From: Planctomycetota bacterium
GTDB taxonomy: Bacteria > Planctomycetota > UBA1135 > UBA2386
Reading direction: 5' to 3'
Length of the DNA stretch: 64,000 bases
NCBI GenBank assembly: GCA_965223545.1
Contig: OZ245006.1
Location: forward strand, 7,072,001 to 7,136,000
The notes under the pieces were generated by a model. That model saw nothing but the letters and a program-made list of their open reading frames with translations, was not told the DNA's origin and made no database searches. This document shows positions 1,403 through 30,199 of this stretch, one piece after another. Made by a program: the position numbers and the translations under genes. Each line of letters begins with the position of its first letter. Position 1 is the first letter of the stretch.

Positions 1403-1566
1403 GGGTGGATTGTGGGCGGCCCCCGGCGACCGACAAGTGGTGCGATGCGATCGTCGCTAACGGTGCCGCGGCGCCGAACGTCCAACCCCCCGTGTCGTTG
1501 GGCCGAAGTCTGGCGGTTGCGCCGCCGCGGCCGCCGGTGACGATGGGGCCGCCGGCGATGGCCATC

Positions 1567-2172
1567 ATGTCTTCCTCTCGCCGAACCGAGGGCGGCGCTG
1601 CCGGTGCCGGCGCGCGCCCCCCGCATTCCGACCCGGTGGAGGCGGACCGCGCCCTGCTGCAGGCCGCGGTGGCCGGCGATCGCGGCGCCTGGGCGGCGTT
1701 GTTCGAGCGCTATGCGGCGGTCGTGCACGGCATCGTGCTCTGCCACGCGGGGCCGGCGGAAGCCGAGGACACAACGCAGGACGTATTCGTCACCGCGTAT
1801 CGGCGGCGTGCATCGGTGCGCGACCCAAAGACGCTGCCGGCCTGGCTGTGCGCGATCGCGCGGCACCGCGCGATCGACAGCCGGCGGCGCCGCCGCCGCC
1901 GGCCCGCGCCGGTCTCCGCCGACGAGCTGGCGGCGGCGACGGCGTCGCCGCCGGCGCAGAGCGAAGCCCGGGAGCTCGCCGCGCGGGTGCTCGAGCTCGT
2001 CCGTGGCCTCCCTGAGGCCTACCGGGAAACGTTGGTGTTGCGGTTGGTCGAGGGCCTGGACGGACCGGCGATCGCGCGCTGCACCGGCCTGACGCCGGGG
2101 TCGGTGCGGGTCAACCTGTGCCGGGGAATGGCCTTGCTGCGTCCGCTGCTGCGGGCGGAGGGTTGGTCGTGA
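1567..2172 (+). CDS. ECF-family RNA polymerase sigma factor
   Basis: Region 2 (EAEDTTQDVF, AWLCAIARHRAID) and region 4 (LPEAYRETLVLRLVEGL...SVRVNLCRG). Start re-chosen at ATG 1567. Confidence 0.9.
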   Translation: MSSSRRTEGGAAGAGARPPHSDPVEADRALLQAAVAGDRGAWAALFERYAAVVHGIVLCHAGPAEAEDTTQDVFVTAYRRRASVRDPKTLPAWLCAIARHRAIDSRRRRRRRPAPVSADELAAATASPPAQSEARELAARVLELVRGLPEAYRETLVLRLVEGLDGPAIARCTGLTPGSVRVNLCRGMALLRPLLRAEGWS

Positions 2173-3146
2173 GCCGCGAGCGCGAACCGCGGCCGCCGGC
2201 CGATGACGGCTACCTGTGGCAGGGAAGCGAACCGGTCGATGCCGATGTCGAGACCTTCGAGCGGCTGCTCGCACCGCTGCGACACGCGGCCGGGGCGCGG
2301 CCGCCGGAGCTGGCTCGCGCGCGCGGGCCTGTCGGCGGCACCGGGGCCCGCTGGGCGCTGGCGGCGGTGCTGTGCATCTCGCTCGCCAGCGCGGCTGCGG
2401 GCTGGCTTTGGCTCACGAGTGGGCGCATCGCGGTGACAGTCGACGGCGAGCGGGTCGCGTGGCGGGTCGGTGAGCGGTGGGTGGCGGACGGTACCCGCAC
2501 CGTCGCGCTGGGCGGCGTCGGCCGCTTCGAGGTCGAGGCCGGGACGGAGCTGCGGCTCGAGCAGTGCGACCGCGCTCGCAGCAGCTTCTTCCTGGAGCGC
2601 GGAGCACTGACCGCATTCGTGTTCCCCTCGGTCGAGGCGCGCTACTTCCAGGTCGGCACGCCGGCCGTGCGCTGTGTCGATCTCGGCTGCCGCTACCGGC
2701 TCGAGGTCGACGACGAGGGTGCGGCCCGCGTGCACGTGACCCTCGGTGAGGTGGCCTTCGAGGAGGCGCGCCGCGCGGTGCGGGTTCCCCGCGGCAACGT
2801 CTGCCGGGCCTCGGTCGGCGACGGGGTGTGCACGCCGCGCGCCGCCGTCGATGCCGGGACGCGGTTCGCCGCGCTGGTCGACACCTACGACCGCGCCCTG
2901 GCGGCCGGTGGGGCGCGGGCGGGCGCGGCCGCGGCGCTGCTGTCGGCAGCGACCGAGGCCCGACACTCGCTGGTCGTCTGGCACCTGCTGCAGGATTCCG
3001 ATGCCGCGGTGCAAGCCGCGGGGTGGCGTTGGCTGGTCGCCCGCTACGGCATCGCGCCGGGCCAGCGACGCGAACCCCCGGCGTCAACGAGCCTTGCGCA
3101 GCGGGAGGCCTGGCGGCTGCGCATCCAGGGCGACTGGTATCTCTGA
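2169..3146 (+). CDS. FecR-domain membrane-anchored anti-sigma factor
   Basis: GTGA overlap with the ECF stop; one TM helix; FecR-like FFLERG...VGTPAVRCVDLGCRY...VHVTLGEV. Confidence 0.7.
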   Translation: MSREREPRPPADDGYLWQGSEPVDADVETFERLLAPLRHAAGARPPELARARGPVGGTGARWALAAVLCISLASAAAGWLWLTSGRIAVTVDGERVAWRVGERWVADGTRTVALGGVGRFEVEAGTELRLEQCDRARSSFFLERGALTAFVFPSVEARYFQVGTPAVRCVDLGCRYRLEVDDEGAARVHVTLGEVAFEEARRAVRVPRGNVCRASVGDGVCTPRAAVDAGTRFAALVDTYDRALAAGGARAGAAAALLSAATEARHSLVVWHLLQDSDAAVQAAGWRWLVARYGIAPGQRREPPASTSLAQREAWRLRIQGDWYL

Positions 3147-3248
3147 TCGGCGGCGCGGCGTCGGTGGGCGGGCGCGCGCGGCGCCATCCGGGGCACCGAT
3201 TTTCGTGGTCTCCGGCGTCCACTGGGGCCATGTTGCCGATAACAGTGG

Positions 3249-3263
3249 TGGCCTCTGCGTTGC
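3249..3263 (+). promoter_or_regulatory. Candidate sigma-54 (-24/-12) promoter for the ATPase/coiled-coil/actin operon
   Basis: TGGC-CTCTGCG-TTGC has exact GG-N10-GC spacing and lies about 78 nt upstream of ATG 3341. The match to TGGCAC is imperfect. Confidence 0.35.
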
Positions 3264-3340
3264 CTAGGCCCCGAGTCCGAGGCCGACCGCCGCCGTTACT
3301 GCCCGCAACACCGCCCCCGGGCTCCAATCCGTCCGTGTCC

Positions 3341-4096
3341 ATGTTCCGTTCCCGCAAGTCCGCGCCGCAAGAGCCCGAAGAGGGCGACGAGATGCTGGTG
3401 CTCGTCGACAAGGCGGTGCACCCGTTCATGGTGCTGCTGCACGACCCCGCCGGGTTCCGCGCCGAGCAGGTGCGTGGGTTGCGCAACAAGCTGATCGCCA
3501 TGAACCCCGACGGTGCGCCGAAGACGCTGGTCGTCACCTCGGCGATTCGCGGCGAGGGCAAGAGCGTCACGGCGATCAATCTGGCGATGGCGTTCGCCGA
3601 GATGGAGCGCATGCCGGTGCTGCTCGTCGATGGGGACCTGCGGGCGCCGTCGGTCGAGCGCTACCTCAACCTCAACGAGCAGGCGGGGTTGTCCGACATC
3701 CTCATGGGGCGCGCCGGCCTCGAGCACGTCGTGCGCGAGTCGGTGTACCGCAACCTCGCGGTGATGGGCGCCGGCACCCGGCTCACCGGCCCGTCGGAGC
3801 TGTTGACGGCACCGCGTTTCGAGGAGCTGCTGCTGCGCCTCAAGGAGCGCTACCAGTACGTGATCGTCGACACGCCACCCGTGCTGCCGTCGACCGACGC
3901 CAGCGTCATGGCGGCGCGGGCGGACGGCTGCCTTTTGGTCGTGCGCTTGGAACGTTCGTCGAAGGCGCTGACGCGCGAGGCCATCAAGAACCTGACCGAC
4001 CTAGGCGCCAACATGCTCGGCACGTTCGTCACCGAAGTCCGCGGTGCCGATCCCGAGGCCGATCCGAGGCTCGGCGACAGTCAGGAGGAGTACTGA
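3341..4096 (+). CDS. CpsD/CapB-family (BY-kinase/MinD-like) P-loop ATPase, cytoplasmic, lacking the C-terminal Tyr cluster
   Basis: Walker A GEGKS, Walker A' VLLVDGDLR and Walker B YVIVDTPP, plus AEQVRGLRNKL and PSELL. The tail has only one Tyr (..SQEEY). Confidence 0.85.
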   Translation: MFRSRKSAPQEPEEGDEMLVLVDKAVHPFMVLLHDPAGFRAEQVRGLRNKLIAMNPDGAPKTLVVTSAIRGEGKSVTAINLAMAFAEMERMPVLLVDGDLRAPSVERYLNLNEQAGLSDILMGRAGLEHVVRESVYRNLAVMGAGTRLTGPSELLTAPRFEELLLRLKERYQYVIVDTPPVLPSTDASVMAARADGCLLVVRLERSSKALTREAIKNLTDLGANMLGTFVTEVRGADPEADPRLGDSQEEY

Positions 4097-4891
4097 GTGG
4101 CATCGCTCGGTCAGAGCCTGAAGGAGTCGCTGCGCAAGCTTGCGTACAGCACGTCGGTCGACCAGTTGCGCAAGAAGGGCGTCAAGAACGTCAAGGTGGT
4201 TGGTCTCGACCGCATCGTCGGGCTGATCGAGGAGGCCGTGCACCGGAGCCTGCGCAACAAGCTCATGGGGCTCGAGCGCGAGCGCATCGTCGGCGACACC
4301 TCGGAGGAGTTCCTGCGGCTGCTGAAGAGCAACGAGGAGCTCGAGCGCTTGCGCAGCGAAGCGATGCGCGAGAAGCACCGCGCGGAGGAGGAGATCGACG
4401 AGCTGCGCCGGCAGATCGAGCAGGGACACCGCGAGCTCAGCGAGCGCCTCGAAGAGGGTGAGCGCGAGATGCAGGCCCAGTACGAGGGCCAAAACGCGGT
4501 CATCGCCGAGAAGCTCAACGTGGTGTTTCGCGAGCTGGTGCAGACGCCGGGCGGCGATCTCTCCGGCCTGCGCGAGCGCATGTTCGAGGTCGTCCTCAAC
4601 CTGGTCGATGAAGAGCGTCGGGCCACGGCGCACGCGCAGCAGGCGGCCCGCGACGGCGAGATCGACCGTTTGCAGCGGCGCTTGAGCAAGCTCAAGAGCT
4701 CGCTCGAGGAATCCGAAGCGCGGCTGCTGGATGCCAGCAGTACACCGACCGTCGACGCCGGCATCTCCAGCGTCTATCGGACCGTGCAGGGCATCGACCA
4801 GGGCGACTCGCAGTTCGATCGCAAGCGGGAGCTGATGGCCGACATCTTTCGGGCAAACGTTGCCCTGCAGAAGGGCGATGCGGGATCGTGA
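4097..4891 (+). CDS. Coiled-coil protein of unknown function
   Basis: GTG start immediately follows the upstream stop. Long E/R/L/Q-rich heptad helices, no TM segment, codon pattern like neighbouring genes. Confidence 0.75.
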   Translation: MASLGQSLKESLRKLAYSTSVDQLRKKGVKNVKVVGLDRIVGLIEEAVHRSLRNKLMGLERERIVGDTSEEFLRLLKSNEELERLRSEAMREKHRAEEEIDELRRQIEQGHRELSERLEEGEREMQAQYEGQNAVIAEKLNVVFRELVQTPGGDLSGLRERMFEVVLNLVDEERRATAHAQQAARDGEIDRLQRRLSKLKSSLEESEARLLDASSTPTVDAGISSVYRTVQGIDQGDSQFDRKRELMADIFRANVALQKGDAGS

Positions 4892-4989
4892 CGCGGAGCG
4901 TCTTTGGCCCGCGCATCGCGGCACGCGTGCCGCCGGCCCAGCGAACCAAACGACTGAACCACTACGCAACCGATTCGAGGAACTGAAGC

Positions 4990-6063
4990 ATGACCGAGGG
5001 TGAAGCCGCAGCGGCGGGTAAGGACGGAGCGAAGGATCACGGTGTCCTGTACATCGGCATGGACTTGGGGACGTCGCGGACGGCGATCTCTGCCAGCAAC
5101 GGCGTCCGCGAGTCGATGTTCTCCGCCGTGGGCTACCCCAAGGACGTGGTCAGCCAGAAGCTGCTGAAGAAGAGCGTGTTGTTCGGCAAGGAAGCGCTGG
5201 AGAAGCGGTTGTCGCTCAACCTCTACCAGCCGCTGCAGCACGGTGTCCTGAAGCACAGCGAGGGTGGCGGAGACGAGGCCGATGCCAATGTGCGCGCCGC
5301 GCGCGACCTGATCCGCGCCGCGACCGACATGGCGCAGGCGCGCAAGGACGAGCTGGTCTACTGCGTCATCGGCGCGCCGGCCCAGGCTTCCATCCGCAAC
5401 AAGGAGGCGATCATCGAAGCCGCGCGGGAGACCGTCGATTCGGTGATGCTGTGCAGCGAGCCGTTCGCCGTCGCGTACGGGCTCGACATGCTGGAGGATG
5501 TGCTCGTCGTCGACATCGGCGCGGGCACCACCGACTTGTGCCGGATGCACGGCACGATGCCGGAGGAGTCGGATCAGATCACGACGACTGCAGCGGGTGA
5601 TGCGGTGGATGCCGAGCTCGCCCGGCTGATCGGCGAAACCTGCCCGGGTGCGCAGTTCACCACCCAGATGATCAAGGACATCAAGGAGCGCTTCTCCTAC
5701 CTCGGCGATCCGCTCGGCCGCTGCACGGTGGACCTGCCGGTGAACGGCAAGCCGACCAGCTTCGACCTCACCGATCAGGTCAAGGCCGCGTGCTCGATCC
5801 TGATCCAGCCGATCGTCGATGGGATCAACAAGCTGATCTCGTCCTTCGATCCGGAGTTCCAGGAGCGGCTGCGCCGGCGCGTTCTGCTCGCCGGTGGCGG
5901 TTCGCTGATCAAGGGCTTGGACAACGCGATCGAAGAGGCGATGCAGCGCGACCTCGGCGGTGGCAAGGTGATGCGCATCGAAGAGCCCATCTACGGCGGC
6001 GCCAACGGTGCGCTGAAGATCGCGCACGACATGCCCGAGGAGTACTGGGAGAAGCTCAAGTAG
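4990..6063 (+). CDS. mamK: MamK-like bacterial actin
   Basis: Actin motifs GMDLGTS, SEPFAVAYG, VDIGAGTTD and LAGGGS. It also carries MamK-type segments VGYPKDV, PLQHGVL, IGAPAQAS, GTMPEESDQ, GKP, F.PEFQ and C-terminal MPEEYW, which I recall from Magnetospirillum MamK rather than MreB. Confidence 0.85.
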   Translation: MTEGEAAAAGKDGAKDHGVLYIGMDLGTSRTAISASNGVRESMFSAVGYPKDVVSQKLLKKSVLFGKEALEKRLSLNLYQPLQHGVLKHSEGGGDEADANVRAARDLIRAATDMAQARKDELVYCVIGAPAQASIRNKEAIIEAARETVDSVMLCSEPFAVAYGLDMLEDVLVVDIGAGTTDLCRMHGTMPEESDQITTTAAGDAVDAELARLIGETCPGAQFTTQMIKDIKERFSYLGDPLGRCTVDLPVNGKPTSFDLTDQVKAACSILIQPIVDGINKLISSFDPEFQERLRRRVLLAGGGSLIKGLDNAIEEAMQRDLGGGKVMRIEEPIYGGANGALKIAHDMPEEYWEKLK

Positions 6064-6087
6064 CGCGGGCCGGGGGTACAGACGGCT

Positions 6088-6112
6088 CGCCGGTCACGGC
6101 GGCCGACCGGCG
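6088..6112. terminator. GC-rich hairpin between convergent actin and HAD genes
   Basis: CGCCGGTC...GACCGGCG 8-bp inverted repeat; no clear U-tract. Confidence 0.3.
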
Positions 6113-6116
6113 CCCC

Positions 6117-6836
6117 CTATAGACCGAACTCGCCGCTCAGGATCTCGCGCAGCTCGTAGAAGTCGCGGATCACGTAGTTCGGCTCGGTCGCGCCCTGGTG
6201 CGAGGCGTAGCGCCCGGAGCGCTGGCTGCGCACCGTGATCAGACCCTCGGCGTTGGCGGGGTCGATGTCGTGCGTCGGGTTGTCGCCGACGTAGACGACT
6301 CTGGCCGGATCGAGCTCCAGGTCGGATACCACGCGCCGATACAGCTTGGGGTTGGGCTTGCTGATGCCGATCTGCTCGGTGAAGTAGATCGCGTTGGGGG
6401 TGAGGAAGTCGTAGATCTTCAGCCGGATCAGCTTCTCGGCCTGTTTGATGGTCCAGCCGGCGGAGACGATCCCGCGCAGCACGGGCTTGTCGGCCAGCCA
6501 GCTGAGGACCTCGTAGACGTCGTCGTAGACCTGCAGCTCGCGCCACTTGGTCTCGTGGTAGGCGACCACGCCGGCGGCGACGACCACCGCGGGGTTGACC
6601 CCCCGGCTGGCCTGCCCCGGCAGGCGCTGCACCACCTTGTCGAAGTGCGACGAGTGGTTGCTCGAGAACTCGGTGATGACCTCGGTCAGCTCCTTGAGGC
6701 ACGCCTCACGGCTGGCCTTGAGGCCGGCACGAATCATCGCGTCGACGGCGGCGCGGCGCGCCTTGTCCGCGAACACCGTCGTCGAAAACAGCGTGTCGTC
6801 GATGTCGAAGAAGACCGCTTGGATCTTGCGCGCCAT
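6117..6836 (-). CDS. HAD-superfamily hydrolase (subfamily IA)
   Basis: Motif I FFDIDDTL, motif III GISKPNP, motif IV YVGDNPTHDI. Confidence 0.9.
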   Translation of the reverse strand: MARKIQAVFFDIDDTLFSTTVFADKARRAAVDAMIRAGLKASREACLKELTEVITEFSSNHSSHFDKVVQRLPGQASRGVNPAVVVAAGVVAYHETKWRELQVYDDVYEVLSWLADKPVLRGIVSAGWTIKQAEKLIRLKIYDFLTPNAIYFTEQIGISKPNPKLYRRVVSDLELDPARVVYVGDNPTHDIDPANAEGLITVRSQRSGRYASHQGATEPNYVIRDFYELREILSGEFGL

Positions 6837-6859: not shown

Positions 6860-9364
6860 TCAGCGCGACAGCTGGTCGGCGACCTCGGTCAGCTCGGTGA
6901 TGGTCGCGGTGACCAGCACGGACAGCGAGGTGTTCTCGTCCGAGACGCCCTCTTGCTTGAACAGGAAGGAGATCAGCGGAATCTTGCTGAGCAGCGGCAC
7001 CTCGGCGCGGCGCTCACGGCTGAGCACCTCGCGCAGGCCGCCGATCAGCACCGAGCCACCGTCCGGCACCGACGCGCTGGTGGCGAACGAGCGCACCGTC
7101 ATCGTCGGCAGCTGCAGGATGACCGGCAGGGTGGTGCCCGCCAGCGACGTGGTGAACGTCGGGATCGGGCGGGTGAGCTCGGCCACCGTGGGCTGCAGGC
7201 TCAACATGATGTTCTTGCGGTCGTGCGCGATGGTCGGGCGCACGTCGAGCACGATGCCGTCTTGGATCACGTCGACCTTGGGGTCGGCGATGAACGACGC
7301 CTGCGCCACCTCGACGTCGAAGTCGCGGATGTAGGAGGTCTGGTTGATCACCGCCATGTTCGCGCGCTCGTTGTTGAGCACGGTCAGCATCTGGCTGTTG
7401 ACCACCTGGATGTCCTCTTGCTTCTCGATCGCCTGGATCAGCGCCTGCAGCTCGAGGTCGTCGAGCAGCGAGAACGCCGCGGTGAAGCCGCCGTTGGCGG
7501 TCAGCGCTTGACCCAGGGGGGCACCGAAGAAGTTCTCGGTGCGCGCCCGCACGTCGCCGTCGCCACCGTCGTTGAAGAACGCACCGGCGCTCGGGTTGCT
7601 GGCGGCGTCGCCCGAGCCCTGGTTGTCGAGCCCGCGCGACGCGGAGTCGTCCAACGCGTTGGTCACGTCGTCCAGAGTGGCCTCGGTGCCCTTGTTGCCC
7701 GAGCCGCCGAGCCCGCGGAAGTCCACGCCGATCTCCTGCAGGTAGTTCTGCGTGATCGTCAGGAACTTGGTCTCGATGGTCACCACGCTGGTGGCGAACC
7801 GACGTTGGTCCTCGATGAAGCGCCGCACGCGCTCCTGCATCTCGGGCGAGGCGTGGCAGAGCAGGTAGCCGCTCTCCACGTAGTCCATCCGGCCGCCGCC
7901 GTCGGCTTCCCAGTAGGTGTCGCCGCCGGTCGCGCTCTCGATGTTGGTCTTCAGCACGTCGGCTTCGATGTAGGCGACCTTCTCGTCACCCTCGCTGCCG
8001 ATGCGCGGGCCCGACAGGCCGATGTCGCCACTGGGGATGTCACGGATGATCGGCGGCAAGAACGTGGTGCGGGGGAACACCAAGTCGCGCACGTCGTGGC
8101 TGATCATGATGTCGGCGCCACCGGACTTGGCCTTGGTGGTGATCTCGACCACGCCGTTGCGGACCGTCCAGGCCAGGGTCTCGCTCTTGTCGACCATCAG
8201 GTCGAGGAAGTTGGCCAGCGAGATCGGCGCGGCGATGTCGATCTCCATCACCAGACCTTCGCCGTCGACCGCGTCGCGCGCTTCCTGCGACATCATGATC
8301 GGCACGTTGGTCATGCTGCGCAGCAGCCGGATGACGTCGCCGTAGTCACCGGTCTCCTCGGTGAACTGTACCTTCGGCACCTGCTTGGAGCGCACCAGCT
8401 CGCGCACCGCGCGGTCGTCCGGGTCGGTGGCGTCGGCCGGCACCACTCCCTGGTCGCGCATGCTGGCGCGCTTCCAGGTCGCGCGGTCGACGCGCAGAAT
8501 GTCGGATTGGGGCACCCGCAGATCCTGGTCCTGTTCGAGCATCCGCTTGAACTGCTCGCGCTTGGAGCGGCGGTAGCGCTCGGTGCTCTCGGTGCGCTGC
8601 GCCTTGGTGGCGGTGTCGTGGATCTCGCGCGCGAGGTGGTTGGTCTGGTCGAGAGTCATGGCGTCGAACGCGAGGTCGCGCGCCAGCTCGTAGTGACCGC
8701 CGTCGAACGCGCGCACCGCCTTGTCGAGCAGGTTGTCCACCCGCGCGGTGAGCCGCGCAGCGCGGGCCTCTTCGGCCAGTCGCTGCTCGCGGTAGATCTC
8801 GTCCTCGATCGCCGCCTGCTTCTCGGCGGCGTGCCGGTCGTGCAGCTCCTGCGCGCGCGCCCGCATCTCGTTGGCGCGGTCGCCGATGTCTTGCCAGTCG
8901 ATGTCTGGGGCGACGTCGATGCGCAGCAGCACCGCGTCGAGGTCGGCGATCGCGGCTTCGTAGTCCTCGTTGGTGATGGAGCGCTCCGCGGCTTCCATGC
9001 GCTGCAGGGCGTCCTGGCGCGCGCGCTGCTCGCGGATCTGCCACAGCCGCTGCATCTGCTCGGCGAAGCTCTGCCCGGTTCCCGGGTGGCCGGGTTGCAA
9101 CGCGGACTGCACCTCGGCGAGCGCGCTCAACACGTCCTGATTGGCGGGCGACAGCTCCTTCGCGCGCAGCAGCAGGGACAGCGCCTCCTCGTTGCGTCCG
9201 GAGCTGCGCAGCTCGCGGGCGTCTTGGAGGTAGCGTTCGGTGAGGAACTTGGCGCGCTCGGCCTTGAGGCTCTGCCCCTGAGGAGCCGCGGTGAGCGCGG
9301 CGGTGGAGATCAGGAGCAGGGAGAGGGCCGATGCGAGGACGCGGCGCGTCAGGACTTCGAACAT
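6860..9364 (-). CDS. Secretin (GspD/PilQ superfamily) with N-terminal TPR/helical extension, paralog A
   Basis: Signal peptide, TPR-like helices and N-domains, then secretin core VTIETKF, LTVLNNERA, GIVLDVRPTI, VPDGGSVLIGGL and VPLLSKIPLISFLFK. Start taken at ATG 9364. Confidence 0.85.
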   Translation of the reverse strand: MFEVLTRRVLASALSLLLISTAALTAAPQGQSLKAERAKFLTERYLQDARELRSSGRNEEALSLLLRAKELSPANQDVLSALAEVQSALQPGHPGTGQSFAEQMQRLWQIREQRARQDALQRMEAAERSITNEDYEAAIADLDAVLLRIDVAPDIDWQDIGDRANEMRARAQELHDRHAAEKQAAIEDEIYREQRLAEEARAARLTARVDNLLDKAVRAFDGGHYELARDLAFDAMTLDQTNHLAREIHDTATKAQRTESTERYRRSKREQFKRMLEQDQDLRVPQSDILRVDRATWKRASMRDQGVVPADATDPDDRAVRELVRSKQVPKVQFTEETGDYGDVIRLLRSMTNVPIMMSQEARDAVDGEGLVMEIDIAAPISLANFLDLMVDKSETLAWTVRNGVVEITTKAKSGGADIMISHDVRDLVFPRTTFLPPIIRDIPSGDIGLSGPRIGSEGDEKVAYIEADVLKTNIESATGGDTYWEADGGGRMDYVESGYLLCHASPEMQERVRRFIEDQRRFATSVVTIETKFLTITQNYLQEIGVDFRGLGGSGNKGTEATLDDVTNALDDSASRGLDNQGSGDAASNPSAGAFFNDGGDGDVRARTENFFGAPLGQALTANGGFTAAFSLLDDLELQALIQAIEKQEDIQVVNSQMLTVLNNERANMAVINQTSYIRDFDVEVAQASFIADPKVDVIQDGIVLDVRPTIAHDRKNIMLSLQPTVAELTRPIPTFTTSLAGTTLPVILQLPTMTVRSFATSASVPDGGSVLIGGLREVLSRERRAEVPLLSKIPLISFLFKQEGVSDENTSLSVLVTATITELTEVADQLSR

Positions 9365-9742
9365 CTGGCTTCGGAGCTTGCTGTAGGGAATCGAGAGGGC
9401 ACCCCGCGGCCGGTACGTCACGCGGACGATCGGCCGCTGCGAGAGGGTGTCGCCGACAACTCGGGGGGACGGTCTCCGGCGATCCGGGAGGCGCAGAAAC
9501 TAGCTGTCATGGGGGGGATCCGCCACCACAATCTTCTTCGCTTTGGCGCCCCTCCACGCTGTGCGGCTGGCCGCGGAACGCGGGTTCCGCGAAGGACTTC
9601 GTGCGGTTCCCCGTAGCCGATCGGGCCGGTTCGGGGCGCGCACACGGCGGTCCGCACGGGCCGCCGGCGGAGGGGGGGCGAACCCCTGGCGCCGAGTCGA
9701 CAACGACTCGGCTGGCCGACGCGCCGGCGGCCGGCTCGTTGG

Positions 9743-10318
9743 CTACTCGCCGCTGCGGGCGCCTCGGGCGCCGCGGGCGCCGAGGCCGCCGCCGAAGCTG
9801 ATGTCTTCGAAGCCCGCCTCGCGGACCGCGTCCAGCGTGGTGGCGACGTCGCCGTAGGTCGTGTCCGGGCCGGGCTCGATGACCACGCTCATCGGCTTGA
9901 GCTCGCCGGTTTCCTTGTCTCGCTGGAAGCGGCTCGTGTCGGTGGCGATCTTGCGCAGCGCCTCGAGCAGCGCGTCCGAGCTCTGGAACGGCGTCGGTCC
10001 GATCTTCCACCGGACCTGGTGGCCCTCGAGCCGGTACGACGGTTCGATCCCGGCCTCCGCCTCCTGCGCGGTCGCCTGACGGCGCGGGATCTTGGTGCCG
10101 AAGTTGTCGCAGATGATCATGATGTTGAGCTTTTCCTGCGGCTCGACCTCGGTCGTGTGCGCGCCCACATCCTTCGGCAGGTAGGCCGGTAGCTTGGCTT
10201 CCAAGATGCGGAAGTCGATGCAGAGGAAGAAGATGATGAGCAGGAACACGACGTCGATCATCGGCGTCATGTCCATCTTGGCCTCTTCCTCGATGGTTTC
10301 TCGCAGTCGTTCCTTCAT
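9743..10318 (-). CDS. exbD: ExbD/TolR-family motor subunit
   Basis: MDMTPMIDVVFLLIIFF TM helix with the conserved Asp; C-terminal VVIEPG..TTYGDV...LDAVREAGFEDISF. Confidence 0.85.
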   Translation of the reverse strand: MKERLRETIEEEAKMDMTPMIDVVFLLIIFFLCIDFRILEAKLPAYLPKDVGAHTTEVEPQEKLNIMIICDNFGTKIPRRQATAQEAEAGIEPSYRLEGHQVRWKIGPTPFQSSDALLEALRKIATDTSRFQRDKETGELKPMSVVIEPGPDTTYGDVATTLDAVREAGFEDISFGGGLGARGARGARSGE

Positions 10319-10329
10319 CGCATCGCCCT

Positions 10330-10875
10330 CTACTGAGCCTGCCTGGCCAACATGCGCACTTCCTTGTCCTCTTCGCTGAGCGCGAGCTCCAGCTTCCAGA
10401 ACGCGGCCTCGGGGAAAGTGCAGGCCTCCATGAACTTGCCGACGTAGTGCCACTCGGTCCACTTGTCGGCGCGCACCAGGACGGGATCCTCGATCGTGGT
10501 CATCCGCATGCCGCCGCCGACGACTTCGCTCTTGATGCTGTCGGGGTCGGCGACGGTCTGCTTCCACAACAGGAGGAGCGGACGGATGTTCTCGATGATC
10601 TTCTTGGGATCGTGTCCGTCGACCAATGGGTCGTAGTAGGCGTTCTTCTTGTAGATCATCTCACCGGACTGGGTGATGTTGATCACCGGCCGGTTCTCCG
10701 GCGGCTTCTCGTCCGGCACCGCGAACTCCGCCTTCGGCAGGATCAGGTCCTCGAGCTCTTGCTGGCTCAAGTCGATCACGAGCACGAAGAAGATCATCAG
10801 CAGGAAGACGCAGTCGATCATCGGCGTCATGTCCATCTGAATCTCTTGCTGGGCGCGTTTGGTTTGTTTCGACAT
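10330..10875 (-). CDS. exbD: ExbD/TolR-family motor subunit (second copy)
   Basis: MDMTPMIDCVFLLMIFF with the conserved Asp; LILPKA; VLVRADKWTEWHYV. Confidence 0.85.
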   Translation of the reverse strand: MSKQTKRAQQEIQMDMTPMIDCVFLLMIFFVLVIDLSQQELEDLILPKAEFAVPDEKPPENRPVINITQSGEMIYKKNAYYDPLVDGHDPKKIIENIRPLLLLWKQTVADPDSIKSEVVGGGMRMTTIEDPVLVRADKWTEWHYVGKFMEACTFPEAAFWKLELALSEEDKEVRMLARQAQ

Positions 10876-10943
10876 CGGTTGCTCCCGGTCTGCGGTCGGC
10901 TTGCCGCACTCCAACGAGCGCGGCGGGGGGCCGGATCAGTCGG

Positions 10944-11666
10944 TCACTCGCCCGCGCTCTTCGGACGGAAGCGCTCGAACATGTCCTCGGCGAGGGCGTT
11001 GACCTCGATGGTCGCGCGCACCACGCGGTTGCGGAACACGAAGAAGAACGCGCCGACCGGGATCGCCACGACCAGGCCGAAGATGGTGGTCGTCAGCGCC
11101 AGCTTGATGCCGCCCGCCAGCTGCGCCGGGCTGACCGAGCCGCCGGCCGCCGCGATCTCGCCGAACGTGACGAACATGCCCGTCACCGTGCCGAGCAGGC
11201 CCATCATCGGCGCCGTGGCACTGATCAGGGACAGCCAGCCGATCTTCTGGAACAGCTTGACCGACTCCTCGTCCTCCATCTCGCGGACCGCGGTCTGGAT
11301 GGTTTCGAACGGGTGCCCGAGCTTGGACAGCCCCGCGGCGACCACGTTGGTGAGGTAGGTGCGCTCGTTCTCGCAGAGCTCCAGGGCGTCCTGGAAGTTC
11401 TCTTCGTCGAACAGGGCCTCGAGCTCGTCGACCAGGTCGGGCGGCGCGAGCTTGTCGCGCTTGATCGTCATGAAGTTCTCGATGATCAGCGCCAGCGAGA
11501 TCACCGAGATGATGACGATCACCCAGCCGACGATGCCCGCGTTCTCGAACATGTCGGCGAGCGCGCTCTTCTGCTCGGTGGCTTCTTGCGCGAGCAACGA
11601 GCTGGTCAGCAGCAGAGTGGACAGGGCCGGGAGGCAGGGGAAGCGGTTCAGAAAAGTCAGCTTCAT
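10944..11666 (-). CDS. exbB: MotA/TolQ/ExbB proton-channel protein
   Basis: APMMGLLGTVTGM and LAGGIKLALTTTIFGLVVAIP signatures; signal-peptide-like N-terminus. Confidence 0.9.
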   Translation of the reverse strand: MKLTFLNRFPCLPALSTLLLTSSLLAQEATEQKSALADMFENAGIVGWVIVIISVISLALIIENFMTIKRDKLAPPDLVDELEALFDEENFQDALELCENERTYLTNVVAAGLSKLGHPFETIQTAVREMEDEESVKLFQKIGWLSLISATAPMMGLLGTVTGMFVTFGEIAAAGGSVSPAQLAGGIKLALTTTIFGLVVAIPVGAFFFVFRNRVVRATIEVNALAEDMFERFRPKSAGE

Positions 11667-11864
11667 CGATCTAAGCCGTCGGCGCGACGGCGCGAGAGTG
11701 GAGGGACCGAGGGCTGGTCCACGAGAGTGCGAATGCCGCCGCGGCGGAGGCAAAGGCCACGGCAGCGCCAGAGTGTGCGTGAGGGGGGGCGGAGACGAAA
11801 GCCCCTGCCGCGCCCACAGGCGAGAAAATCGTCCGGGGTTGCCCGGTCGTGACCACCGGTCGCG

Positions 11865-13019
11865 TCACCGCTGGGTCTCGCCGCGGGCCTGCTCGGCCCA
11901 ATCGGTGGTGGGGTATTGATCCGTGACCAGGTCGAAATAGGTCAGCGCGCGGTTGCGCGCGTCGCGCTCGCGCTCCTCGCCGAGGGCGAGCAGCACCTTG
12001 CCGAAGAAGTACAGCGACTTGGCCGAAGTCTCGGCGTTGCTGGTGTCGCGCGCCATCGCGCGCGCCAACGCCATCTGCGCCTCGCGCAGGGTGGCGGCCT
12101 CGCCACTGCCTTCGGTCGACAGAAACAGGGCCTGCCCCACCCCGGCCAGGGCGGCGGCCTGCACGCTGCGGGTACCGCTGTCCGCGTGCCGGCGGAAGTA
12201 CTGCAGCGCCTGCTGCCAATCCTTCTCGACGATGTAGGTCTCGCCCTGCGCGATCAGCGCGCGTTCCTTGAGCTCGCCCAGCTCCGCATCGGCGCCCTCG
12301 GTGCTGATGGCGCCGTCGACGGCGGTCGCGACCGACTGGAACGCGCTGCGCGCCTGGCCGGCTTCGCCGGCGGCGGCGAGGGCGACGCCGCGGTGGTACT
12401 TGGCGTGCGCGGCCCAGGTCATGCCCCAGCCGTCGGTGACGGTGCGCGACTCCAAGCTCTGCAGCGCGGAGGCGGCTTCGGTCGGCTGACCCTGCAGCAG
12501 CAGCGCGCGGGCGAGCAGCAGGTTGGCCTCGGCGACGCGCAGCCCGTCGGGGTGGTCGTTGATGTACTCCTGCAGGCGGTCGGCCGCCGCCTCGGCGGTG
12601 GCCGCGTCGGTGTCGGCCGCGCGCAGCGCGGCGCGCGCTCCGCGGAAGGTCGCCTCCGCCTTGGTCAGGTCGCGCAGCGCCTCCTTGGCGGCCTCGAGGT
12701 ATTGCGTCGCAGCCTCGCCGAACTGCCCGTTCTCGGCCAGGTTCTCGGCCAGCCGGAACGTCTCGGGCATACTGTGCCACTCGATGGCGCGCACCGTGGC
12801 CGACGGGACCTTCTTGTCGCCGTCCGGCGAGGTGTAGGTCACCTCGGCGGCGGTTGCGGCGGTCACCTCACCGCCGCGCAGGGTGGCGCCGTCGCGCAGG
12901 TGCACGACGTCGGTCTGCGCGTGGGAGGTCGCGGCGCCGGTGAGCGCGACGGCGGTCACCGCCAGTGCGCGCCACGCGGAGAGGGCGGCCGGCAGGATGG
13001 TGGTCGTGGGAGCGCTCAT
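11865..13019 (-). CDS. Exported TPR-repeat protein
   Basis: Signal peptide (..SHA-Q), small N-terminal beta module (DVVHLRDGATLRG), TPR helices, and C-terminal YFDLVTDQYPTTDWAEQA resembling BamD/CpoB-type TPRs. Confidence 0.75.
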   Translation of the reverse strand: MSAPTTTILPAALSAWRALAVTAVALTGAATSHAQTDVVHLRDGATLRGGEVTAATAAEVTYTSPDGDKKVPSATVRAIEWHSMPETFRLAENLAENGQFGEAATQYLEAAKEALRDLTKAEATFRGARAALRAADTDAATAEAAADRLQEYINDHPDGLRVAEANLLLARALLLQGQPTEAASALQSLESRTVTDGWGMTWAAHAKYHRGVALAAAGEAGQARSAFQSVATAVDGAISTEGADAELGELKERALIAQGETYIVEKDWQQALQYFRRHADSGTRSVQAAALAGVGQALFLSTEGSGEAATLREAQMALARAMARDTSNAETSAKSLYFFGKVLLALGEERERDARNRALTYFDLVTDQYPTTDWAEQARGETQR

Positions 13020-15916
13020 CGCGGGTCGTTCTCCAGGAACATGTCTCTCAGGTTGCGGCCCTCGAGGCCGAACTTCTCCAGCTGGGCGAACTCGTCGAAC
13101 GAGCGCGCCTTGTTGAACAGCGTCACGGCGTACTGCTGGTACTTGCTGTCCTTCTTCGCCGCCTCGCGCGCGAAGTGCAGCAGCTCGAAGTGGAACCGGT
13201 ACCAGTCGAGCGAGTGGTCTTCGAACGCCTTGGTCGAGTCCAGGGCGTAGGTCTTGTACTCGCCCCAGTACTTCTCGTAGGCCTCCACCGGCTTCTCGAG
13301 GCCCAAGAAGGACACGATGCGGCCGGTGCGCTCATCGACCTCTTGCCAGCCGCCGAGAGCCAGCGCGACCAGGCGCTTGAGCGGGTAGTCGTTGGGCCGG
13401 GCCGCCTCGGCCGCGGTCAGCATCTCGTGGGCCTCGCGGTACTTGTGCTGGCGCAGGACGGCGTCGCCGATCACCGGCCGGATCTGCCGGTCGAGGTTGG
13501 TGGCGAGCTCGGCGTCCTCGCCGAAGCGCTCCAGCGTGTCGTTGCCGAGCTTCTCGACCAGCGGCCAGTCGCGCAGATCCTGGGCGTGCTTGATGGTGTG
13601 GTAGGCGATCGTGTACTGCGGGTCGCCGGAGTCCCGCAAGTACGCCTGGCCGATGGCCACCGTCTTGCGCCGCAGGGTGTCGAGGGCCTCGCGGGCCGCC
13701 TCGGCGTCCTCGCCACGGGTCTCGATGGCGGCGACCTCGGTCTCCTGGGCGCCGACCTTGTCGTGGTAGGCGCCGAAGATCGCGCTGGCCAGAATCGGCA
13801 CCGTGGTGTCGCGCGGCGCCAGCTCGATCAGCTGGCGCTGCTTCTCTTCGGCCTTGTCGAGGTTGCCGAGTGCGATGTAGCAACGCCCCTGGTAGTAGAT
13901 CGCGCGCGGCACCATCGCCGGCACCGCCTCGCCGTGGGACGCCTCGAACTCACCCAGAGCGCGGATCGCCTCGGGGATCTTGGTGGCGTCGGCCTCGCGG
14001 TTGTCGCCGCCGGTGCCCTCCTCGTAGAGCATCGCTCCCTCGGCGAAGGCGATCTCGCCCTCGGCGATGCGCCGCACCTGCTCCGCCGCGTTGTCGTCGT
14101 CGGGCAGATTGGCGTCCTTGGTCTGGCGATAGGCGCGGTAGTCCGCGATCGCCTTGCGCGCCGCGTCGAAGTCCCCCATCCGGTGGTGGCACATCGCGAT
14201 GCGCGCCTGCGCCCACTCGTAGTAGAGCTCGCCCTTGGGGATCGAGCGCAGCTGGCGCAGCGCCCCCTCGTAGTTGCGCTTGCCGAACTCGCGCAGCGCT
14301 TCGTTCCAGATCCGCTTGGTGGCGTCCTCGGCCGAGCCGAAGCGGACGACCAGTCCGTTGACGTCGTCACCCAGGCTGTTGAAGAACGCGTCGTTCTTGG
14401 CGTTGCTGCGCACCTGGTTGAGGGTCTTCTGGATCATGTCCGCGGCGCGGCTGACGTGGTTCTTGTCCTCGCCGTCGCCAAAGCGCTCGAGTCCTTCCTT
14501 GAGCGCCATGGTGGCCTCCAGCACGCGGCCCTGCAGGGCCATGCTATGGCCGATGACGAAGTGCGCCTCCATGCCGTGCTCGGCGAGCTCGGCGTCGGTC
14601 ATCATCGACAGCGCGTGGTGGATGCCGGTGATCGCGCGCTCGTAGTTCTTGGCGATGTAGTCGCCCTTGGCGACCTCGAGCAGCAGGCCGCCGCTGACGC
14701 GCTGCGACTGCGCTTCGAGAATGTCCTTCAACGCCGATTTGGCGCGCAGGCCGACGAAGTCATTGCCGTGCCAATCGTTGATCGCCTGCACGATGGTCAA
14801 CGCGCGGTTGAGCTCTTCGTCGCTGCCGCCGTCGGCGAGCGCCTGGGCGTAGGCGAGGTACATGCCGTGACCGAAGCGCTCGTCCTCTTTGCCCTCGTCC
14901 TCGACCGGCTGCTCGAGATTGGTGAGCGGGACGCCGTAGCCGCCGAGGCGGTTGCGGTAGTCGTCGACCAGCGTCATCACCTCGGCGCGCTTGCCCTGCT
15001 GGAGCAGCACCAGCGCAGCGCGCTCGTAGGCTTCTTCCATGGTGACGACCATGAGCTCGCGGACGTCCGAGGACAGCTGCAGGGACTCGTCGGTGAGCAC
15101 GGTGTCGGCGGACTGGATCACGCCCTGGTAATTGGCGACGGCGTCGTCGAGCTCGCCGACCACCTCGTCGTTCTGCGCGTATTCGAACAGGGCGCGCTGG
15201 CCGAGGGCGGTCTCTTCACCGACCTCGAAGATCAGCTCCTCCAGCTCCGAGCGCGAGCGCTCGGCGAGATAGCTGCGGTCCTTGGCCACCGCGCGGGCGT
15301 GCTCGCGCAGCAGGATGCCCTTGCGCATCCACGCCAGGTGGTAGTCGGTCCACAGCCGCGGGTTGTCGTCCTTGCGCGACTCGAGCGCCTGCTTCACCGC
15401 GTCGCACGCGTCCTCACCGGCGCGGAAAACGGCGGCGGCATCTTCCTCGAGCTCCGGCACCTTCGCCGGCTCGTCGGCGCGGGCCAGCTCGAGCTCCTCG
15501 GCGAGAAACCGGCCGAACTCGAGCGACGCGTTGGCGAGCGTCATGCGCGCCGCATCGGCGGCTTGGCCGTCCGAGTAGCGGCTCAGGAAGTCGCGGACCT
15601 TGTCGAGCGCCTCTTTGTAGAGCGTGCGGCGCTCGGCCCGGTTGCCCTCCAGCTGGGCGCCGATCAGCGAGATCTCGATGCCGAGCTGCGCGACGCTCTG
15701 GAAGTCCTCGCCGTCCTTGTAGCGCAGCTTCAGCCGGTCGACCTCCGACTGCGCCAACGAGATGAAGCGCAGCTTGGTCGCCAGATCGCGGACGAACGTC
15801 AGATCGCGTTCGAGGCGGCTCTGTTGGGCGACGAGGGGCACCGAAACGGTGCCCGCCGCGAGGATTGCGAGGGCCGCGGGGTACGCGCTGCGCCGGAGGA
15901 AAAAGCGTGCCGTCAT
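13016..15916 (-). CDS. Large exported TPR/alpha-solenoid protein
   Basis: Signal peptide after ATG 15916; all-helical TPR-like repeats; ATGA overlap with the downstream TPR gene. Confidence 0.75.
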   Translation of the reverse strand: MTARFFLRRSAYPAALAILAAGTVSVPLVAQQSRLERDLTFVRDLATKLRFISLAQSEVDRLKLRYKDGEDFQSVAQLGIEISLIGAQLEGNRAERRTLYKEALDKVRDFLSRYSDGQAADAARMTLANASLEFGRFLAEELELARADEPAKVPELEEDAAAVFRAGEDACDAVKQALESRKDDNPRLWTDYHLAWMRKGILLREHARAVAKDRSYLAERSRSELEELIFEVGEETALGQRALFEYAQNDEVVGELDDAVANYQGVIQSADTVLTDESLQLSSDVRELMVVTMEEAYERAALVLLQQGKRAEVMTLVDDYRNRLGGYGVPLTNLEQPVEDEGKEDERFGHGMYLAYAQALADGGSDEELNRALTIVQAINDWHGNDFVGLRAKSALKDILEAQSQRVSGGLLLEVAKGDYIAKNYERAITGIHHALSMMTDAELAEHGMEAHFVIGHSMALQGRVLEATMALKEGLERFGDGEDKNHVSRAADMIQKTLNQVRSNAKNDAFFNSLGDDVNGLVVRFGSAEDATKRIWNEALREFGKRNYEGALRQLRSIPKGELYYEWAQARIAMCHHRMGDFDAARKAIADYRAYRQTKDANLPDDDNAAEQVRRIAEGEIAFAEGAMLYEEGTGGDNREADATKIPEAIRALGEFEASHGEAVPAMVPRAIYYQGRCYIALGNLDKAEEKQRQLIELAPRDTTVPILASAIFGAYHDKVGAQETEVAAIETRGEDAEAAREALDTLRRKTVAIGQAYLRDSGDPQYTIAYHTIKHAQDLRDWPLVEKLGNDTLERFGEDAELATNLDRQIRPVIGDAVLRQHKYREAHEMLTAAEAARPNDYPLKRLVALALGGWQEVDERTGRIVSFLGLEKPVEAYEKYWGEYKTYALDSTKAFEDHSLDWYRFHFELLHFAREAAKKDSKYQQYAVTLFNKARSFDEFAQLEKFGLEGRNLRDMFLENDPR

Positions 15917-16261
15917 TGTCTTCAGTGGGATGTCCTGGGCCGTGCCACCCGTGGTCGCTAGAGCCGGTGTGATCGCCGGTTCGGCTGCCGGGATGAGGTC
16001 GTGGCCGGGGTTTGAAACTGAAATGGCGAGCAAACCTCGGAGAGGGCGGCCGAGGTTCTTTGGGGAGGAGGAACGGGGAGTATAGCGAGGGGTTCAGCGG
16101 CTGCACGCATCGCCTTGACGCGGCGGTGCGCGGCTGGCGAACGGCCCGGACCGGCCAAGACGCTCGGTGCCGCAGGGCCGCGGCGCCCGGGCGGCGCTCA
16201 CCGCCGCGGGGGGCGGGGGGGGACGGCGCGCGCCTCGGGGCGTGGGCGCGCCGCCGGCGGC

Positions 16262-18901
16262 TCAGCCGTTGCCCTCACCCATGAGGGTGAGGGTGAGATC
16301 GTCGGGACCGATCTCCGGCAGGTTCTCGTCCGGCATCACCACCTTGGCCCGGATCAGGATGACGATCTTCTTGTTCTGCACGAACGTGCCCTTGCGGCTG
16401 AAGAAGAACGACAGGCCGGGCAGATTGCCGAGCAACGGCACGCGCGACTCTTGGTACTGCTTTTGGGCGAGCTTCATTCCGCCCAGCATCAGCGTGCCGC
16501 CGTCGGGCATCGTCACCGTGGTGCGCACGCGCTGCAGAGTGACGCTGGGCAGCTGGATCGACACCGGCTGACCGACGCCGAGAGTGGTGGTGAACGTCGG
16601 GATCGGCAGATCCAGGGTCATCACGGTCGGGCGCAGCTCCATGGTGATGAAGCGACGGTCGGCGGAGACCACAGGCCGCACGTCCAGCACCACGCCGTCG
16701 CGCACGACGTCGACGACCGGGTTGGCCACCGCCGCCGCCTGCGCGATCTCGACGTCGAAGTCGCGGATGTACGACGTGTGCCGCAGCACCGACATGCTGG
16801 CGCGCGTGTTGTTGTAGATCACCAGGCGCGGCGCCGTGATCAGCTGGCTGCGCTCCTGCTTGTCGACCGCGCGGAGCACGATCTCCAGCTCGGCGTCGCC
16901 GAGGAACGCGTACTGCAGCGCCAAACCGCCGCTGCCTTCCAGCGTGCCGTCGCCGCCCAGGGCGCGGTCGAACAGGTTCTCCGACCGGGCCATGATGTCG
17001 CCATCACCGCCGTCGTCGTAGAAGAAGCCGGGCTCGGTGCCGGTGCCGATCGACCCCGGCGTCGCCGGGTTGATGACGCTGCGCTGGCCGAAGTCGTCGA
17101 AGCCGGCGTTCTGCCGGTTGTTCCGCTCCAAGCCGCGGCCGGGCACGCCGCTCGCCGCTTGGTTGCCCAGGCCGCGGATGTCGACGCCGATGTCCTCGAG
17201 GAACTGGTCCTCGACCTGCAGGAAGCGCGACTCGACGTCCACCTGGATGCCGACCGCTTGGCGGAGGTCGGCCAGGAGGCTCTCGATCTGCTCGTGGACC
17301 AGGCGGTTGTGCCGCACCAGCAGTACGCCGCGCTGCGGGTTGATGCTGGTGCCGTTCACGTCCCAGGAGTCGGGCTCGATGTTCACCTGGATGATGTCCA
17401 TCAGCTTGTCGGCGTCCACGACGGTGGGGGCCGGCTCCTCGTCCTCCTCGAGGGCGAACTCGTCCTCGTCACCGGGCGCACGCAGCTTCAGCTCGACGCC
17501 CGGGCGGTCGGGAACGCCCTGCACGATGTCGCGCACGTCGTACTGGACCAGGTAGATGCGGCCGCCCGCGTTCTCCTCGGTGACCAGCTGGACGATGCCG
17601 TTCTCGACCTTCCACTTGACGTTGGTCAAGTTGCCGATGACGTCCAGTGCCTGCGACACCGAGGTCGGCGGCAGGCTGAAGTCGGTCAGCGTGGTCTGGT
17701 CGGGATCCATCTCCTTGACCGGCGTGGTGACCAGGAACGTGACGTCGGTCACGCGGGAGTAGTAGTCGGCCCAATCCTGCACCGCGGCGCTGGAGAAGTT
17801 GTGCTCGACCTTGGTCGACTCGAGCTTGGCGTAGATCGCCTTCTCTTCCGGGGTCTCGAGATCGCCGTCCGGCGTGAACTGCAGCGGTTCGCGCGACTGG
17901 ATCTTCGCCCAGTGCTCCACGTCGTACTGGACGACGTCGAGCTGCGGCAGGTCGAGCGAGTTCAGGTCGTCGAACGTCTTCGCCCACTCGCCGTTCCAAT
18001 CGTTGCGCAGCACGTCGAGGCGGTTCTCGTGGCGCGCCCGCTCGGCGAGGTCGCGCAAGGCCAGCGCGTTGCCGTTGTTGGGCTCCTGCGTCAGCGCCTC
18101 GTCCAGAGTCGTCACCGCGCTCTCGTAGTTGCCGTTCTGGAAGTCGAAGTTGGCCTGCTCGAGCAGTCGCTTGACGCGCTCGCCGCGCCGGATGCGTGCC
18201 GCGCGCTCGGCCCGCGCCAGCTCGGCGCGCGACGCCGCTTCGGCCTCGGCGGTCTCGGCTTCGTCGGCCTGCATCTTGGCCTGCCGCGCGTCGTCGAGCT
18301 TCTGCGCCAGCGTGCGCTCGGTCTGCGAACCGGGCATCGCGTAGGGCGACGATTGCAGCAACAACAAGCCGCGTTCGTAGGCGTCGATGGCGTCGCCGTA
18401 GCGTCCCTCGGCGTAGTGGGCGTCGCCGACGGACAGCGCGGTGCGCACGTCGAAGTCGAGCTTTTGACGGGCGGCCTCGGACTCGCGCACCATCTCGACG
18501 AACTGGCGCTCGACATTGGCGCCGGTGTTGCCGAGGGCTGCTTGCGCGTCGTTCAAGATGCTGCGCGCCGCCTGATTGGTCGGGTCGATCTCGAGGACCT
18601 CGGCCGCGATCTGGGCGGCGTCCTGGAACAAGCGCAGCTCCAGCGATCGGCGCGCCTCGTTGATCGAGTTGGTGATCAAGAACTGTCGCCGCTGAGCGGC
18701 GGGGTCCTGGGCCGGGTCTTGGCTGGGCGCGGCGGCAGCGGGGGTCTCGGCCGCGGCAGCGGCCGTCGGCGCGCTCTCGGCCGGCTCCGCCGCGGCGGGC
18801 GCCGAGGAGTCGTCCGCGGGCGCGCCGGTGCTGCAGGCTGCGACCCACGCGAGCGCGACCACACCCAGGCTGCGCAGAAGGAACGTCGGGACCATCTTCA
18901 T
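16262..18901 (-). CDS. Lipoprotein secretin with N-terminal TPR extension, paralog B
   Basis: Lipobox VAA-C, Ala/Pro linker and TPRs, then secretin core QVDVESRF, APRLVIYNN, GVVLDVRPVVS, MPDGGTLMLGG and VPLLGNLPGLSFFF. Confidence 0.85.
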   Translation of the reverse strand: MKMVPTFLLRSLGVVALAWVAACSTGAPADDSSAPAAAEPAESAPTAAAAAETPAAAAPSQDPAQDPAAQRRQFLITNSINEARRSLELRLFQDAAQIAAEVLEIDPTNQAARSILNDAQAALGNTGANVERQFVEMVRESEAARQKLDFDVRTALSVGDAHYAEGRYGDAIDAYERGLLLLQSSPYAMPGSQTERTLAQKLDDARQAKMQADEAETAEAEAASRAELARAERAARIRRGERVKRLLEQANFDFQNGNYESAVTTLDEALTQEPNNGNALALRDLAERARHENRLDVLRNDWNGEWAKTFDDLNSLDLPQLDVVQYDVEHWAKIQSREPLQFTPDGDLETPEEKAIYAKLESTKVEHNFSSAAVQDWADYYSRVTDVTFLVTTPVKEMDPDQTTLTDFSLPPTSVSQALDVIGNLTNVKWKVENGIVQLVTEENAGGRIYLVQYDVRDIVQGVPDRPGVELKLRAPGDEDEFALEEDEEPAPTVVDADKLMDIIQVNIEPDSWDVNGTSINPQRGVLLVRHNRLVHEQIESLLADLRQAVGIQVDVESRFLQVEDQFLEDIGVDIRGLGNQAASGVPGRGLERNNRQNAGFDDFGQRSVINPATPGSIGTGTEPGFFYDDGGDGDIMARSENLFDRALGGDGTLEGSGGLALQYAFLGDAELEIVLRAVDKQERSQLITAPRLVIYNNTRASMSVLRHTSYIRDFDVEIAQAAAVANPVVDVVRDGVVLDVRPVVSADRRFITMELRPTVMTLDLPIPTFTTTLGVGQPVSIQLPSVTLQRVRTTVTMPDGGTLMLGGMKLAQKQYQESRVPLLGNLPGLSFFFSRKGTFVQNKKIVILIRAKVVMPDENLPEIGPDDLTLTLMGEGNG

Positions 18902-19151
18902 GAGTCTTTGCGATCCTGATGAGGTGTCAGGAGATGGGGCGAGCGTCGTGGCGGGGCGACCGAAAGGGGGACGTGCTCTTCAGTGCGGGAGGGACGAACC
19001 GCCGACGTGGCGGGCGGACGGTAGCCGTCGTCCCGGCGAGGGTCAAGCGCGGAGGAGCATTGCTCTGAAGCCCGCCTGCTTCGGGCTAACGACGCCGGGG
19101 CAGGGAGGTTTCGACGACGGTCGCCGGCGGACGGCGACCGCGCGCGCGGGT

Positions 19152-27149: not shown

Positions 27150-27210
27150 TCCACGGGCCGCACGCAAGCCAAAAGCGACGCAAAACTCTCTCCACGAAAA
27201 GGAACGAATC

Positions 27211-27462: not shown

Positions 27463-27473
27463 AGGCCTGAGCG

Positions 27474-28585: not shown

Positions 28586-28657
28586 AGAAGGACGGTGGCG
28601 CGCAAGGCGTCCCCGCCCTCTGAAAACGAACACTTTGTCACAGCCAAACTGATCGCC

Positions 28658-30199
<1,542 letters not shown>

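Follow-up and report, generated by a model that had tools for sequence, protein, structure and literature searches.

The window, the whole 64,000-nucleotide stretch of planctomycete DNA that was analyzed, carries the gene for an actin-like ATPase of 357 amino acids at positions 4990 to 6063 of the forward strand. The reading frame is intact, begins with ATG, and has GAGGA 8 nt upstream. Two genes in the same orientation lie directly upstream of it. The first (3341 to 4096, forward strand) encodes a stand-alone BY-kinase-type P-loop ATPase of 251 amino acids, its start being inferred from orthologs. The second (4097 to 4891, forward strand, GTG start) encodes a coiled-coil protein of 264 amino acids, here called the partner, that matches no family above cut-off and is a putative filament adaptor. 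The two genes are likely to be translationally coupled: as read from positions 4083 to 4099 of the forward strand, an AGGAGG motif lies within the 3' end of the kinase-like gene, and the TGA of that gene abuts the partner GTG. A convergent gene for a HAD hydrolase (6117 to 6836, reverse strand, Pfam HAD_2) bounds the locus downstream and probably lies outside the system; a HAD gene also adjoins actin in loci L122, L125, and L128 and was not seen in L119. A short-read contig that may come from the source sample covers positions 3200 to 6200 with 0 differences. Neither a sigma-70 promoter nor a terminator match was found, and a plasmid search returned nothing.

The arrangement was examined in 41 genomes of the same order, 36 of which contain the actin. 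All 36 have the partner immediately upstream of actin (38 of 40 loci; one genome is included on the strength of a partial gene at the edge of a contig), and the full triad of ATPase, partner, and actin is found in 33 of the 36; the sampled genomes are kin, and these counts, not being independent, describe a pattern without a P value. Elsewhere in the window, genes for an ECF sigma factor and a FecR-like anti-sigma factor (1546 to 3146) stand directly upstream of the triad, a position in which they were not seen in the relatives inspected. Downstream, at 6860 to 18904, genes for an ExbB/TolQ homolog, for two large helical proteins, and for two ExbD-like proteins (assigned by eye) are enclosed by a pair of secretin-family genes; a secretin also flanks actin in L122, L125, and L128. 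An ordinary F-type ATP synthase operon occupies 25446 to 33108.

Identity of the actin

The actin passes the NCBIfam cut-off for MamK (NF040964, 407 bits against a cut-off of 400) and falls short of those for BeeR (204 against 530) and MreB (62 against 293). A sequence-only reading of the locus had reported intact actin ATPase motifs together with MamK-like segments, and every motif that it named is present in the frame: DLGTS at residue 25, VGYPKDV at 47, PLQHGVL at 81, IGAPAQAS at 127, SEPF at 156, YGLD at 163, DIGAGTTD at 175, LAGGGS at 300, and YW at 352. The two upstream genes had been passed over in that reading. The closest solved structure is 5ljw, an "Actin-like ATPase" that we take to be Magnetospirillum MamK (E value of 4e-77), while MreB structures match with 6e-12 at best. 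By a manual count on the alignment, Glu157 and Asp175 correspond to Glu143 and Asp161 of the 5ljw chain, presumably the catalytic residues of MamK. DIGAG and SEPF are instances of the motif types DxGxG and xEPx, which are given for MamK in the part of PMC10653835 that was available, as SxGxG and xExx are for Mad28.

The same reading had referred to MamK-like actins in nonmagnetotactic, shape-shifting Planctomycetota, and the literature bears this out. The MamK-like actin of Saltatorellus ferox was named saltatorellin in a 2019 preprint (Wiegand et al., bioRxiv 10.1101/817700). According to the portion of that preprint available, its mCherry fusions form filaments in Escherichia coli and Magnetospirillum gryphiswaldense, and a role in shape shifting is put forward as a hypothesis only. 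The name is mentioned once in the available part of PMC11032199. We identified the S. ferox Poly30 record with the forward cloning primer of the preprint (1 of 10 matches); its product is identical to the actin at 230 of 343 residues (67% over 343 amino acids). In a careful tree of 41 rows, from which MreB was omitted as a long branch and volactin was omitted as well, the two proteins share one clade of 6 rows (support of 99/93), the labeled magnetosome MamKs form a separate clade of 8 rows (99/98), and BeeR-like rows stand apart (100/100), these values coming from a bootstrap that was not fully settled and a model without mixtures. The groups were named after inspection of a quick tree of 146 rows, likewise without volactin, which agrees with the careful one, and a union of the saltatorellin and magnetosome MamK groups is rejected by an AU test (P = 0.0014). 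By family score, identity, and clade, the actin is a saltatorellin, an already named bacterial actin of nonmagnetic planctomycetes, and is not new. With its ATPase motifs intact, it is likely to form dynamic filaments. A further well-supported MamK-like clade (P0243, P0247 to P0257, P0261, P0266, and P0268) carries N-terminal extensions of 150 to 900 residues, mostly of low complexity.

Two other identities were rejected. BeeR of Verrucomicrobiota (PMC11929497, available in part; PDB 8r2n), which forms a three-stranded tubular filament, is likewise a MamK-related actin of nonmagnetic bacteria, and the actin matches 8r2n with an E value of 7e-38, but BeeR scores and branches separately and has 30 to 50 residues before the actin fold, compared with about 18 here. 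MreB is excluded by its low score and by the quick tree, in which the actin does not branch with MreB. The mreCD-pbp2-rodA context of MreB is missing from the window and present at another locus of the host genome, an assembly of 8.1 Mb in 2 contigs that is 91% complete. This genome has one MamK-like gene and one MreB gene (TIGR00904, 444 against 366), the latter followed by PBP and RodA/FtsW genes. A separate canonical MreB is a trait that this host has in common with S. ferox.

Magnetosome MamK, with its MamJ/McaAB or Mad partners, resembles the present actin in family model, in ATPase motifs, and in working beside coiled-coil proteins, but it belongs to another clade, and no mam genes were found beside or with the actin here. 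No family match to mam, mreC/D, pbp2, or rodA was obtained among the 8 and 37 window ORFs scanned (the 37 at an E value of ≤1e-12 only), in agreement with the sequence-only reading that no such genes are nearby; kinases were among the other families matched. Could the actin still be a true magnetosome MamK whose gene cluster was lost or is missing from the assembly? Its score does exceed the MamK cut-off, and genome completeness stands at 91%. MamI and the magnetochrome domain gave no match in it, in searches that both lacked a positive control, and MamE, MamO, and MamP were covered through that domain only. Against this, the actin lies outside the magnetosome MamK clade, and the other mam models fall far under their cut-offs and on generic proteins: MamA at best 68 against 200 (long TPR proteins), MamB 119 and MamM 95 against 350 (two CDF transporters), and MamQ 84 against 250 (two LemA proteins). 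These weak loci are scattered at 1.75, 4.09, 6.57, and 7.90 Mb, and the genome-wide search did not find a core magnetosome cluster in the 91%-complete genome.

The distribution in the phylum points the same way. In an even sample of 301 genomes, a MamK-like gene (E value of ≤1e-40) is present in 111, a few of the weakest being BeeR-like or more distant. The MamK cut-off is passed in 75 of the 301 and the MamB cut-off in 0 of the 301; a MamK-family match is therefore no marker of magnetotaxis in this phylum. A magnetosome MamK is very improbable at this locus and already largely refuted, and the claim of the first reading that a MamK-type actin acts here outside a magnetosome stands.

Two observations were made alongside these searches. 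A metagenome scan for the magnetosome cluster gave five loci, one of them long (L046). The MamK-like gene of this locus (L046:9965-11017, 490 bits) falls inside the magnetosome MamK clade; the ORF list, inspected by eye, has no mam-like ORFs within 10 kb, and a small membrane-anchored, probably coiled-coil gene follows the actin. In genome G053, which has no MamK-like match, three CDF transporters with MamB-model scores of 199 to 231 bits lie on one contig (G053:C8:1776-15271).

The coiled-coil partner and its head

The partner consists of three parts: a head (residues 6 to 61; 4112 to 4279, forward strand), a coiled coil, and a tail (residues 180 to 260; 4634 to 4876, forward strand). Head and tail were delimited by sequence models of our own and have no convincing Pfam family or natural PDB match; the PDB matches obtained, designed repeat proteins for the head and generic coiled coils for the tail, were rejected. 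The ESM Atlas gave no usable lead. In the literature searched, we found no description of the partner or of the shared head, and "tyrosine kinase" and "coiled-coil" are absent from the main text of the saltatorellin preprint (10.1101/817700), whose supplements (Fig. S6 and Table S4), like subscription papers, could bear on the point. The partner is an undescribed coiled-coil protein in a well-conserved module of which the actin itself is known.

The tail tracks the actin closely. It occurs in 65 of the 301 phylum genomes. All 65 belong to the 111 that have a MamK-like gene, none of the 190 other genomes gave a match, and 63 of 77 tail matches lie within 800 bp upstream of actin. One tyrosine of the tail, Tyr227, is conserved in 100 of 121 aligned rows. 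In the 40 loci where head and tail both occur, the partner mostly measures about 250 to 280 residues (range, 206 to 387). Under the first model, 46 of the 111 MamK-like genomes lack a tail match; in loci sampled from part of these 46, an iterated model recovered several tails, and other proteins end in a shorter last tail helix. No partner was found upstream of the MamK-like gene in the loci of family f60 inspected (L067, L069 to L071, and L073). A search of 150 representatives found no partner-actin fusion, the extra length of the long forms being unrelated sequence; a further search found no longer protein with the tail, a weak negative. In one upstream partner (L061:4694-5374), the terminal helix motif occurs twice in tandem.

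S. ferox offers the closest comparison. Its saltatorellin also belongs to a nonmagnetic host with a separate MreB and also follows directly on a tail-bearing gene; however, that upstream protein lacks the head, whereas the partner here is full length with head, coil, and tail, and the kinase-like gene of S. ferox is about 1 Mb from actin, whereas here it is linked. Four S. ferox proteins carry the tail: the short headless one adjoining saltatorellin, a GGDEF fusion 6 kb away, one whose front part has no family match, and a full-length one elsewhere. The head is replaceable, given that the tail is borne there by a headless protein and by a GGDEF protein. The fusion of the tail to a GGDEF domain lies at L056:964-2001, and a fusion to another domain, without assigned family, lies at L058:1480-2631. 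These fusions suggest signal input into the filament.

The N-terminus of the partner matched the gene upstream of a third actin-fold gene in the host genome. This gene (G000:C1:1460051-1461127, reverse strand) encodes a volactin-family actin (Pfam Volactin, 284 bits against a cut-off of 35). Directly upstream of it lies the gene for a head-bearing coiled-coil partner of about 550 amino acids (G000:C1:1461154-1462986, reverse strand), the pair spanning G000:C1:1460051-1462986 (L140:5051-7986). The actin shares its Pfam family with volactin of Haloferax volcanii, but it is bacterial and has the head-bearing partner upstream. It carries SFGGG and NEAH, which agree with the motif types SxGxG and xExx of Mad28, so that a possible kinship with Mad28 is traced by two short motifs only; in the literature searched, no paper covering both Mad28 and volactin was found.

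A volactin-family gene is present in 93 of the 301 phylum genomes. A head model built from MamK-like loci alone recognizes the gene preceding volactin at 25 of 30 loci held out of its training (E values of 3e-15 to 4e-7). At four of the five missed loci, a head match lies 1.8 to 2.0 kb upstream, beyond the fetched flank; the remaining one is close to the start of a contig. Of the 301 genomes, 126 have the head, and all of these are among the 142 with either actin: all 62 that have both actins, 36 of the 49 in which only the MamK-like gene occurs, and 28 of the 31 in which only volactin occurs. None of the 159 genomes that lack both actins has it. The conserved tail of volactin partners is another one, and its model matches nothing in saltatorellin loci; conversely, the saltatorellin tail model gives one weak match in volactin loci, confined to the coiled coil. 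Twenty head proteins encoded apart from actin genes were compared: 7 score for the saltatorellin tail (2 only in part), 4 score for the volactin tail, 4 have an end that by inspection resembles the latter, and 5 show neither tail. By these models, each actin family has a partner tail of its own, and tail type follows actin type. Volactin was not found in S. ferox, though a head-bearing protein is retained there. In family f60 (L176 to L178), the volactin sequence is part of a long open frame, and the single head protein, which has a volactin-like tail, is encoded elsewhere.

These distributions bear on a reading in which the neighbors are conserved by descent only, with an actin that acts unaided and upstream genes of unrelated function. 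The kinase-like gene is indeed often unlinked or absent, and the partner is missing at some actin loci. Descent only does not account easily for a tail that occurs without actin in 0 of 190 genomes and stays beside actin even where the rest of the protein has been replaced, or for one head that precedes two actin families, each with its matching tail. We regard this reading as improbable. Actin-specific tails joined to a shared head instead lead us to read the partners as a family of adaptors.

The BY-kinase-type ATPase

The upstream ATPase scores 133 against a cut-off of 108 for TIGR01007, measured on the longer frame from position 3146, and has the Walker A, A', and B motifs GEGKS, DGDLR, and DTPP. 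BY-kinases are defined by these three motifs together with a tyrosine cluster and a transmembrane activator (PMC4007543, in the part available). The protein shares GK, DxDxR, DxxP, and ExxRxxR with BY-kinases of the CapB/CpsD type but differs from them in having no tyrosine cluster, no adjacent activator, and no neighboring polysaccharide genes. Its last 30 residues contain 1 tyrosine, and the same region contains 0 to 2 in 30 of 31 homologs and 4 in one. No transmembrane activator is fused or adjacent to it, its neighbors being the FecR-like gene and the soluble partner.

A kinase-like gene lies at most 2.5 kb upstream of actin in 28 of the 111 MamK-like genomes, from 9 families, with 7 arrangements codirectional and 21 divergent. 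S. ferox, G033, and G040 have it unlinked to actin, no such gene was found in G032, and G029 has it without actin or partner. Because it can be unlinked and can occur without actin, we treat this ATPase as a frequent, optional partner of the actin module.

A candidate role for the tethered filament

On balance, we favor a module in which a saltatorellin-type actin forms likely dynamic filaments and the coiled-coil protein encoded upstream serves as its adaptor. The tail would bind its own actin filament, and the coiled coil would space the filament from the head. The head, in turn, would dock on a cellular site common to saltatorellin and volactin partners, so that related linkers would tether both filaments; the split between actin-specific tails and a common head makes this division of labor probable. 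Precedents come from related systems. In deep-branching magnetotactic bacteria, MamK and Mad28 have coiled-coil Mad proteins as interaction partners (PMC12748827), and the tips of volactin filaments attach to the membrane via unknown factors (PMC10869688), both as given in the available parts of these papers. These precedents support the adaptor idea without proving it. The BY-kinase-type ATPase might regulate or localize the actin-partner pair, for instance by phosphorylating Tyr227, a step that we propose only tentatively. The tethered filament may push or hold membrane domains as cells change shape and divide without FtsZ, which is possible and rather less secure than the adaptor assignment. 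FtsZ/tubulin was not found in the host genome in a search whose positive control was detected in 13 of 14 genomes. Against a role in shape, the actin is spread over many families of uncharacterized cell biology, and the preprint itself offers that role as no more than a hypothesis.

The same adaptor anatomy would fit a filament that positions internal cargo (granules, vesicles, or membrane compartments) in the manner of MamK, with the partner as a MamJ- or Mad-like cargo linker and no part in cell shape. MamK is the closest studied relative, and the coiled-coil Mad partners of MamK and Mad28 mentioned above (PMC12748827, in the available part) count for this reading as well. However, no cargo genes accompany the module in the loci inspected, and no mam genes were found in the genome, which leaves cargo positioning rather unlikely.

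Chromosome segregation in the manner of ParM/ParR or salactin would have the head bind DNA and the tail bind the filament, with the ATPase assisting in a ParA-like way. In ParR/ParM, too, the adaptor gene is next to the actin gene and the actin-binding helix is at the C-terminus of the adaptor, and the head of the present partner is rich in Lys and Arg. The BY-kinase CpsD binds ParB, according to the available part of PMC4574921. However, the head has no consistent DNA-binding family match and is lost or swapped for a GGDEF domain in some proteins, and no centromere-like repeat array was found in noncoding DNA at either actin locus. Segregation is accordingly the less likely of these two alternatives. 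We rank shape change and division narrowly above both cargo positioning and DNA segregation.

A wider reading, which we offer as speculation, is that many FtsZ-less planctomycetes have a general cytoskeleton of two filaments, one made of a MamK-type saltatorellin and the other of an actin of the volactin/Mad28 type. Each would have an adaptor bearing its own tail, with a common head set on one landmark and with tyrosine-kinase or c-di-GMP input. The magnetosome skeleton of MamK, Mad28, and coiled-coil proteins in deep-branching magnetotactic bacteria would then be a specialized offshoot. Saltatorellin is the main candidate for shape change and division in FtsZ-less planctomycetes and was previously without a known partner. 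A candidate adaptor can now be named and split into a 56-residue head, an 80-residue tail, and one conserved tyrosine, and the same partner head appears to serve a second actin family.
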